Positions 1,192 to 1,253 of a DNA stretch of 38,247 nt are shown piece after piece. Source of the stretch: a plasmid; the sequence record NZ_CP077636.1. One strand, given 5' to 3'. The notes beneath the pieces are model-generated. The model was not told the origin of the DNA. It saw only the letters and a program-made list of their open reading frames with translations, and did no database searches. Made by a program: the position numbers and the translations under genes. Position 1 is the stretch's first letter; every line of letters starts with the position of its first letter.

Positions 1192-1253
1192 GGAAAATTA
1201 AGCCAAAAGTCTTAATTTTTATGAGTTTAAGCGGGGACACCCCGCAACGCCCC
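1192..1253 (+). repeat. 62-bp GC-hairpin element, copy 1 (identical to 20069-20130)
   Basis: ggaaaattaagccaaaagtcttaatttttatgagtttaagcggggacaccccgcaacgcccc. Contains the perfect hairpin gcgggg-aca-ccccgc and a ttaag/cttaa stem. GC-rich island in AT-rich DNA. Confidence 0.8.

Follow-up and report, generated by a model that had tools for sequence, protein, structure and literature searches.

A 62-nucleotide element shared by the small RNA CJpv2 and the putative leader of ORF 20151 on a Campylobacter pVir-type plasmid

Background

The plasmid sequence NZ_CP077636.1 (38,247 nucleotides, referred to here in its entirety as the window) carries two identical copies of a 62-nucleotide element, one of them shortly after a primase gene and the other in front of open reading frame (ORF) 20151. 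What would such an element do at two distant places, and would it do so as DNA or as RNA? An initial annotation, made from the sequence alone, proposed four roles: a recombination or resolution site, a single-strand initiation (ssi) or primosome site, a small structured RNA, or an attenuator in front of ORF 20151. We find that copy 1 almost certainly belongs to CJpv2, a published small RNA (sRNA) of Campylobacter. Copy 2 is on balance probably an RNA-level leader, predicted by folding to mask the start codon of ORF 20151. Two of the four proposals thus gain support, the small RNA for copy 1 and the attenuator for copy 2, and the recombination and ssi sites gain none.

The sequence is that of a pVir-type plasmid of Campylobacter jejuni/coli. 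Joining the two ends of the window yields an intact ORF for a 417-amino-acid Toprim primase, which shows that the window covers the whole of a circular plasmid. BLAST searches against PLSDB returned 32 records, and each is a conjugative Campylobacter plasmid (MOBP/MPF_T) of the pVir type. As a reference we used pVir of C. jejuni 81-176 (NC_008770).

The repeated element and its distribution

The 62-mer GGAAAATTAAGCCAAAAGTCTTAATTTTTATGAGTTTAAGCGGGGACACCCCGCAACGCCCC occurs as exact copies at 1192–1253 and 20069–20130, both on the plus strand and 18.9 kb apart, as initially annotated. No further match with up to three mismatches exists in the window, where the number expected by chance is zero. 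Because the window is a complete circle, the copies are separated by 18,877 and 19,370 bp along its two arcs. The 3' half of the element has a GC content of 69%, versus 25.9% for the window, and 29-mers reaching this value are confined to the two copies, which bears out the compositional anomaly that had been pointed out.

Both of the hairpins described in the initial annotation can be formed. The GC hairpin (GCGGGG-ACA-CCCCGC; 20108–20122 in copy 2) consists of a six-base-pair stem made entirely of G-C pairs and a three-nucleotide loop, with a predicted stability of -11.8 kcal/mol. The ttaag/cttaa stem, AAAATTAAG/CTTAATTTT (1194–1202 with 1211–1219 in copy 1), is weak at -3.9 kcal/mol. Each copy is also preceded by a strong hairpin of its own, at 1168–1193 (-9.6 kcal/mol) and 20048–20070 (-11.1 kcal/mol), and these two differ, as had been noticed; the first two bases of the repeat are the last two G residues of each preceding hairpin. 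A search of the whole window against Rfam gave no match at the gathering score, and E-value searches around both copies returned only chance-level hairpin matches far under the threshold.

The element region matches two places in 32 of 32 PLSDB relatives, and tblastn searches with the ORFs adjoining each copy recovered the same 32 records. Scanning a collection of genome contigs with a degenerate pattern added Campylobacter novaezeelandiae as the only match; a metagenome scan gave one chance match in a GC-rich coding region (L005), and a viral collection gave none. The element is restricted to Campylobacter pVir-family plasmids. The initial annotation was to be discarded if the element proved peculiar to one plasmid, unconserved and silent; instead, conservation extends throughout the plasmid family, and copy 1 is a transcribed sequence.

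Copy 1 lies within the sRNA CJpv2

A transcriptome analysis (Dugar 2013; PMC3656092) lists an orphan transcription start site (TSS) at pVir 25268(+) with a step height of 2740, one of the largest values among the pVir entries examined, and names the transcript CJpv2. In its Tables S5 and S12 the size is given as '>100 nt' and detection by Northern blot is recorded (probe CSO-0218). The 51-nucleotide promoter and TSS context published in these tables matches the window at 51 of 51 positions (1044–1094, plus strand), which puts the start of copy 1 98 nucleotides downstream of the TSS. The target of the Northern probe (1166–1183) is the hairpin directly 5' of copy 1 and thus lies upstream of the copy itself. 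RNA-seq of strain IA3902 (Kreuder 2017, Table 5; PMC5447181) places CJpv2 at 25244–25412, a length of 168 nucleotides. These positions correspond to 1136–1304 of the window and include the whole element, although the boundaries, called by Rockhopper, are approximate. The 201 bp around copy 1 are identical in IA3902 and the window, and CJpv2 was detected again in this strain in two studies (PMC5447181, PMC10470494). We consider it almost certain that copy 1 is part of CJpv2, and the suggestion of a small structured RNA fits this copy.

The gene for CJpv2 is located between the homologues of pVir0033 and pVir0034. The primase gene and an ORF of 144 amino acids lie upstream of copy 1, with CJpv2 downstream of the latter, and ORF 1525 follows. 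From approximately 940 to approximately 1253 the sequence is 100% identical between C. jejuni/coli plasmids, compared with 47–86% for the upstream ORF and 55–69% for the 90 bp downstream. This conserved island and the 62-mer share their 3' end (~1253).

Three more distant types of CJpv2 were available for comparison. Two homologues (L026 and L027) were found through their primases, which are 72–74% identical, and the third is from C. novaezeelandiae; over all four types the primases are 72–89% identical. The 62-nucleotide module is the best-conserved part of the sRNA. The 5' 90 nucleotides cannot be aligned among the homologues, yet each forms a long hairpin. Within the module AAGUCUUAAUU is invariant, the GC stem is kept while its loop varies (ACA, AUA, AGAG, or AAUAC), and three of the four types have the tail AACGCCCC. 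The C. novaezeelandiae sRNA copy is truncated (GGAAAAUCAAAGUCUUAAUUAAGCGGGAAUACCCCGC), lacks the 5' arm and the tail, and has diverged from the leader copy of the same plasmid. Of the 11 pairs in the hairpin adjoining copy 1, hairpin 2, three carry compensatory double changes among the four types. The aligned positions of this hairpin are paired in 90.7% of cases, versus 40–58% when the partners are slid by one to three columns. These compensatory changes support a structured RNA.

In the 81-176 version of CJpv2 (L001, 25268–25455) the 5' arm of hairpin 2 is lengthened by a six-nucleotide insertion, ATAACC, which the window lacks. The published Northern probe extends over these six nucleotides and would be mismatched to the window version. 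The 144-amino-acid ORF upstream of CJpv2 (619–1053, plus strand) resembles a membrane protein and is hypervariable among near-identical plasmids (47–100% identity; homologues P0012–P0078). With the adjacent sRNA 100% identical, a sharp mosaic boundary results near position 940.

Copy 2 may form a leader that masks the start codon of ORF 20151

Copy 2 is situated between ardC (19127–20008) and ORF 20151, which is followed by genes for a TrbL/VirB6-like protein and a type IA topoisomerase (topA). In the predicted fold of 20009–20170 the sequence GCCAAAAGUCUUAAUUUUUAU (20079–20099), from the AU-rich 5' half of the element, pairs with AUAAAUGUUAGGAGUUUUGGC (20147–20167) at 19 of 21 positions, and the AUG is thereby buried. 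The GC hairpin of copy 2 is carried in the apical loop of this start-codon stem.

This pairing is an outlier among the genes of the plasmid. When the 5' half of the element was compared with the region from -20 to +20 of 103 ORF starts, ORF 20151 ranked first at -22.8 kcal/mol; the next best value was -14.7, and the mean was -8.0 with a standard deviation of 3.0. When instead the 65 nucleotides upstream of each ORF were paired with the start region of that same ORF, ORF 20151 ranked first of 102 at -23.7 kcal/mol, a value that none of 1000 dinucleotide shuffles reached.

To examine conservation at the leader site, we collected relatives through homologues of ORF 20151. In five of them the start-codon stem is the minimum free energy structure and the AUG is sequestered. 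The 62-mer at this site is 100% identical in C. novaezeelandiae and differs at a single loop position (ACA to ATA) in the TTU-622 group. Changes in the start-codon stem comprise one U-A to U-G and one disruptive C-G to C-A. The most distant relative is Campylobacter sp. W0049, whose ORF 20151 protein is 53% identical and whose spacer cannot be aligned except for TAAGCCAAAAGTCTTAATTTTTAT. The GC hairpin and the tail are absent there, and an unrelated hairpin sequence, CCCUCCGAuuugaUCGGAGGG, occupies the position of the hairpin that precedes copy 2. The start-codon pairing of W0049 takes the form of a simple hairpin with the Shine-Dalgarno sequence (SD) in its loop. Since W0049 keeps only the AU-rich half, this half appears to be constrained, and the GC hairpin dispensable, at the leader site.

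On the strength of the modelled stem and its retention in relatives, copy 2 probably works as an RNA-level leader masking the start codon, a proposal that we hold with modest confidence. The attenuator suggested earlier fits copy 2 in this form, in that the folding model pairs the 5' half of the element with the SD and AUG region.

A leader peptide was considered and rejected as a conserved feature. Its short upstream ORF, beginning at ATG 20098, lacks an SD, is interrupted by a frame break in the C. novaezeelandiae leader, and is without its ATG in W0049 and in three other sRNA types. As it stands in copy 2, this ORF (20098–20156, plus strand) encodes MSLSGDTPQRPKSFKEYKC and its stop codon TAG (20154–20156) overlaps the ATG of ORF 20151. 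The counterpart in copy 1 (1221–1256, plus strand) ends with a TAA at the border of the repeat. Conservation of the short ORF does not extend to W0049, L026, L027, or C. novaezeelandiae.

An antisense start has also been mapped at this site. Table S5 of Dugar 2013 (PMC3656092) lists an antisense TSS at pVir 7721(-) with a step height of 13 and an enrichment of 5.4. Its 51-nucleotide context matches the window at 51 of 51 positions, corresponding to a start at 20144 on the minus strand, and the transcript would cover both the SD and copy 2.

Predicted pairing of CJpv2 in trans

In CJpv2 the sequence complementary to the start region is held solely in the local hairpin of -3.9 kcal/mol. When the 3' domain of CJpv2 was cofolded with a fragment containing only the initiation region of ORF 20151, the gain over the separate folds was 17.5 kcal/mol. 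With its seed so weakly held and a gain of this size, CJpv2 could repress ORF 20151 in trans. Among the ORF starts compared above, this ORF is also the top target of the 3' module. Across the four sRNA types the predicted pairing of the module with the initiation region declines from -24.6 kcal/mol in pVir to -20.8 in L027, -16.6 in L026, and -8.3 in C. novaezeelandiae, while the target is almost invariant. We regard regulation of ORF 20151 by CJpv2 in trans, which these energy models allow, as tentative, and we lean against it.

A second predicted interaction involves the other end of the sRNA. Approximately 22–29 nucleotides at the apex of the 5' hairpin (~1113–1146) are complementary to the 28-nucleotide 5' untranslated region (UTR), including the SD, of ORF1525. 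The same UTR cassette stands before ORF4926 and ORF23641 and is likewise complementary (UTRs at 1497–1524, 4898–4925, and 23613–23640, plus strand). The duplexes with ORF1525, ORF4926, and ORF23641 have predicted energies of -25.7, -23.7, and -23.7 kcal/mol, values that were reached by zero to five of 300 shuffles. Loop and UTR match best within a lineage: the energy is -31.0 for the pVir loop with the pVir UTR and -30.4 for the C. novaezeelandiae loop with its own, versus -26.5 and -23.3 for the crossed combinations. This complementarity supports CJpv2 as a base-pairing regulator. The 5' loop also scores high (-23.0 kcal/mol) against the initiation region of the rep gene (near 32709, minus strand).

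The coordinates of the features at both loci are collected in Table 1.

Table 1. Location of the features associated with the two copies of the element
Feature	Position	Strand	Remarks
CJpv2 promoter and TSS	1044–1094	+	TSS at 1094; -10 box TATAAT at 1083–1088
sRNA CJpv2	1094–1262	+	3' end approximate (published as '>100 nt' and '168 nt'); predicted fold z = -4.4
CJpv2 long 5' hairpin	1095–1167	+	Inverted repeat
CJpv2 hairpin 2	1168–1193	+	Predicted fold; compensatory changes; target of published Northern probe; adjoins copy 1
Copy 1 of the 62-nucleotide element	1192–1253	+	Exact match; 3' domain of sRNA CJpv2
GC hairpin GCGGGG-ACA-CCCCGC, copy 1	1231–1245	+	-11.8 kcal/mol; followed by tail AACGCCCC (1246–1253)
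Hairpin before copy 2 (CCCCUAAAAA...UUUUUAGGGG)	20048–20070	+	Predicted fold
Copy 2 of the 62-nucleotide element	20069–20130	+	Exact match; in ardC–ORF 20151 spacer; ends 20 nucleotides 5' of the ATG
Predicted strand GCCAAAAGUCUUAAUUUUUAU in copy 2, opposing the translation-initiation region	20079–20099	+	19/21 pairing with 20147–20167; identical at 1202–1222 in CJpv2; invariant in all relatives including W0049
ORF 20151 translation-initiation region	20140–20167	+	From sequence: SD AAGGAG 20140–20145, ATG 20151–20153, paired strand 20147–20167
ORF 20151 (pVir0010 homologue)	20151–20420	+	89 amino acids; without Pfam family; precedes virB6/TrbL-like gene and topoisomerase gene
Weak antisense promoter TTGATA-17-TAACAT and TSS 20144(-)	20144–20179	-	Promoter scan; promoter at 20151–20179, inside the first codons of ORF 20151

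A model for the two copies and the points against it

The observations can be combined into a model in which one transcribed RNA module is used in two contexts, as the 3' domain of CJpv2 and as the leader of ORF 20151, with pairing in trans possible between them. We consider this model evenly poised between right and wrong. Copy 1 would be the 3'-terminal domain of the abundant CJpv2, whose parts would follow one another as a long 5' hairpin, hairpin 2, and the 62-nucleotide module. Copy 2 would be the leader of ORF 20151 within the unit ardC | ORF 20151–virB6-like–topA. The AU-rich half would fold onto the initiation region, and the resulting long stem, by burying the start codon, would lower translation of ORF 20151. 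The GC hairpin in the apical loop may serve as a stable clamp or as a protector of the 3' end. The same anti-start sequence in CJpv2, being weakly held, could pair in trans with the initiation region of ORF 20151, and the 5' loop could pair with the shared 5' UTR of three other plasmid operons, which would make CJpv2 a riboregulator with two seeds. Both the cis stem and the trans duplexes are predictions of folding models, and we infer the regulatory effect, the exact 3' end of CJpv2, and the competition between trans and cis pairing.

Several observations weigh against this model. Double compensatory changes were not seen in the start-codon stem among the relatives, and in W0049 a change from UUUUGGC to UUUUAGC weakens one pair. 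Covariation is absent from the element's two local stems, which do not vary, and it therefore speaks neither for nor against them. The first codons of ORF 20151 do not show excess conservation at synonymous sites (3 of 9, versus 16 of 39 in the rest of the gene). The published differential RNA sequencing (dRNA-seq) tables report no plus-strand TSS between ardC and ORF 20151, and sense transcription over copy 2 thus requires read-through from upstream. AU-rich sequence inflates duplex scores. For CJpv2 itself, the start called by Rockhopper is 42 nucleotides from the dRNA-seq TSS, the boundaries are imprecise, and the 3' end is deduced. The weakest point of the trans interaction is the poor pairing of the C. 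novaezeelandiae sRNA copy (-8.3 kcal/mol). In addition, within the mRNA the cis copy should out-compete an sRNA acting in trans, and a trans role is consequently not obviously needed. Finally, gene conversion alone could explain the perfect identity of the copies.

Alternative explanations

The last of these points leads to the alternative that we take most seriously, although we think it rather unlikely: the element could be a passive cassette for 3' ends or RNA stability, its GC hairpin holding off 3' exonucleases or assisting termination, that lies at the end of two highly expressed transcripts, CJpv2 and the ardC mRNA, was duplicated and kept identical by gene conversion, and involves no cross-talk, so that complementarity to the start codon would act in cis only or be incidental. 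A stable hairpin precedes each copy at the end of an expressed unit, the conserved island and the element end together, and the many repeated intergenic cassettes of this plasmid suggest that module duplication is common. In IA3902, normalised expression is 644 and 1372 for the adjacent genes pVir0008/0009 versus 37 and 23 for virB9/virB10, which makes a boundary near copy 2 plausible if the former represent the ardC region, and the published TSS tables list internal TSSs of their own for the downstream genes. A canonical intrinsic terminator would pair the GC-rich stem-loop, which is present, with a U-tract within zero to two nucleotides, and we rejected this candidate. No U-tract adjoins the GC stem in either copy, where the stem is followed by AACGCCCC; in copy 1 a U-rich stretch begins eight nucleotides past the stem, and neither copy 2 nor L027, where an A-rich stretch follows the tail, has one. 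A terminator scan found no terminator-like site at either copy. A passive cassette would also leave unexplained why the W0049 leader retains only the half that is AU-rich, complementary to the start codon, and unlike a terminator, and why the complementarity is such a strong statistical outlier. A second alternative is a decoy, in which CJpv2 would titrate the 20144(-) antisense RNA through its perfect 62-nucleotide complement and relieve repression of ORF 20151. A decoy would explain the identity of the copies; the antisense TSS is published, its promoter is recognizable with an identical context in the window, the listed step height of CJpv2 is approximately 200 times that of the antisense TSS (2740 versus 13), and the CJnc180/CJnc190 sRNA and antagonist of C. 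jejuni are a documented pair of this kind. We nevertheless judge it highly unlikely. Antisense TSSs are very common in C. jejuni, making up approximately 45% of all TSSs (Dugar 2013; PMC3656092), and 20144(-) is a weak one. The -35 hexamer of the antisense promoter is lost in C. novaezeelandiae, TTU-622, and W0049 (TATCAA becomes TATTAA), the antisense RNA has no evident terminator, and the sRNA copy of C. novaezeelandiae has diverged from its own leader copy.

The remaining alternatives invoke recognition by a protein or by the DNA machinery. A DNA-level site, whether an ssi or primase site on the transferred strand, a secondary site resembling an origin of transfer (oriT), or a site of site-specific recombination, is slightly less probable again than the decoy, and we conclude that the 62-mer is probably not a DNA-level site. 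A GC hairpin followed by AACGCCCC is loosely reminiscent of hairpin-plus-nic or ssi sites, copy 1 follows closely on the primase operon, and the copies are almost opposite each other on the circle. However, the element does not contain the MOBP nic consensus YATCCTGY, whose only match in the window lies beside the relaxase gene, and oriT was rejected as its function on these grounds. The annotation of pVir includes no recombinase, integrase, or resolvase, and a Pfam scan of 19 flanking ORFs did not find a recombinase near either copy. Recombination between direct sites would delete the type IV secretion system (T4SS) genes in the 18.9-kb interval, yet 32 of 32 relatives retain both copies and the interval, which counts against the recombination or resolution site of the initial annotation. 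The hairpin and tail are missing at the W0049 site, the tail is missing in the C. novaezeelandiae sRNA copy, and copy 1 lies within a strongly transcribed sRNA. A promoter scan found no promoter-like hexamers inside the element on either strand, such as an Frpo-like single-stranded DNA promoter would contain, and the published dRNA-seq tables place no TSS within it. The pattern of conservation instead follows RNA features, and the ssi proposal, like the other DNA-level roles, finds no support. Least probable of the explanations considered is a protein-binding site, in which a regulator would bind the inverted repeat TTAAG-N8-CTTAA or its RNA hairpin and CJpv2 would titrate an RNA-binding protein from the leader. 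In most copies the arms AAAATTAAG/CTTAATTTT keep an invariant sequence around a variable loop, and the element contains GGA motifs, one of them at the edge of the GC stem and loop. The spacer, on the other hand, varies between seven and eight nucleotides, the C. novaezeelandiae sRNA copy has no 5' arm, and no RNA-binding domain was found among the 19 flanking ORFs. RNA immunoprecipitation sequencing of CsrA in strain 81-176 gave six peaks on pVir, none of them at CJpv2 (25268–25440) or copy 2 (7646–7730), and a CsrA sponge or target was rejected for this reason.

Comparison with known systems

CJpv2 of 81-176 pVir and the copy 1 locus share position, promoter, TSS, and flanking genes, and copy 1 lies inside the mapped transcript. 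Copy 2 differs in that it is not an sRNA gene.

Antisense RNAs control the ribosome-binding sites of transfer and replication genes on several plasmids, as in FinP/traJ of F-like plasmids, CopA/CopT, and Inc RNA/repZ. CJpv2 resembles FinP and CopA in being a short, abundant, structured plasmid RNA with predicted pairing to an SD and AUG region near conjugation genes, and in that the leader of its putative target would hide the start codon. However, those RNAs are encoded in cis and antisense to their targets, whereas CJpv2 carries a same-sense duplicate of the leader from 18.9 kb away. A FinO-like chaperone was not identified here, and the likeness of CJpv2 to FinP depends on predicted pairing.

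As a leader, copy 2 recalls the hairpins that hide a start codon or SD in cis, such as translational attenuators and RNA thermometers, through the predicted stem that buries the AUG. It differs from them in bearing a GC hairpin in the apical loop and in having no known trigger and no Rfam family. The perfect GC-rich stem-loop ending an sRNA in an AT-rich replicon is also like an intrinsic terminator or 3' stabiliser, with the difference that the U-tract is not adjacent.

CJnc180 and CJnc190 are a documented pair of sRNA and antagonist in C. jejuni. The two are arranged antisense to each other. CJpv2 is similar to this pair in that an abundant sRNA is perfectly complementary to the 20144(-) RNA, but the antisense RNA is weak and its titration conjectural.

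Other features of the plasmid

The only match to YATCCTGY in the window is TATCCTGC (extended, TATCCTGCCC) at 8438–8445 on the minus strand, 73 nucleotides upstream of the relaxase start codon (8365). Its candidacy as oriT rests on this position, because approximately 1.7 such 8-mers are expected per window by chance.

A promoter and 5' UTR cassette is repeated at 1306–1547, 4729–4959, 6054–6198, 23433–23663, 30078–30222, 30433–30550, and 35969–36113. It has A/T-rich repeats with an 11-bp period upstream of a TATAAT box. Four of the copies match the published context of the pVir 25676 TSS, which places TSSs at 1497, 4898, 6148, and 23613. By their sequence, the genes behind these cassettes look like a set of co-regulated plasmid operons with a common operator array. 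A putative ORF of 17 codons, MFWVWCKMSLKKHIKKV, with a strong SD (AAAGGGGGAAA) is located at 1379–1432 on the plus strand, and paralogous stretches are found near 4802 and 23506 in the region of the cassette that occurs three times.

An iteron-like repeat of 18–25 bp, CGCAAAATGTCGGTATAA, is present in at least eight direct and several inverted copies (6609–6798, 8960–9000, 9154–9196, and 32794–33308). They form a cluster upstream of the rep gene, and others lie on either side of the relaxase and oriT region. An exact duplicate of 83 bp is found at 6609–6691 and 32808–32890. In a block of small hypothetical ORFs, three segments are duplicated with 97–99% identity (26667–26885 and 28753–28971; 25466–25521 and 27888–27943; 26883–26942 and 29373–29432), which suggests recent segmental duplication or paralogous gene cassettes.

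Conclusions

The three reports found here that mention CJpv2 (PMC3656092, PMC5447181, PMC10470494) cover its detection, TSS, size, and changes in expression, and do not describe a function, a target, the second copy, or the complementarities presented here. What we add is new detail on a known sRNA, namely a paralogue in a leader and a set of predicted targets; the element is not of a new kind. A false lead is removed as well, in that the GC-rich repeat is unlikely to be an oriT or a recombination site and the sequence by the relaxase gene is a better candidate for oriT. In its place the repeat yields a defined 21-nucleotide seed (1202–1222) with a target at 20147–20167, three candidate targets for a second seed in the 5' loop, and a cis-acting leader structure, all of them predicted.

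In its furthest extension, which we consider distinctly unlikely, the model would make CJpv2 a master riboregulator with two seeds. The 5' loop would mask at least three operons (ORF1525, ORF4926, and ORF23641–ssb), and the 3' module would mimic the leader of ORF 20151. By this mimicry CJpv2 could repress ORF 20151, the virB6-like gene, and topA in trans, or de-repress them by soaking up the 20144(-) RNA, and selection for mimicry, beyond gene conversion alone, would keep the copies identical.

Campylobacter is not known to have Hfq or ProQ, and a validated pair of base-pairing sRNA and target would be useful in this genus for that reason. Virulence and horizontal gene transfer in Campylobacter have been linked to plasmids of the pVir type, whose regulation has received almost no study. 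If the extended proposal were true, CJpv2 would act independently of Hfq as an sRNA hub coordinating the expression of conjugation-associated genes on a virulence plasmid of Campylobacter.

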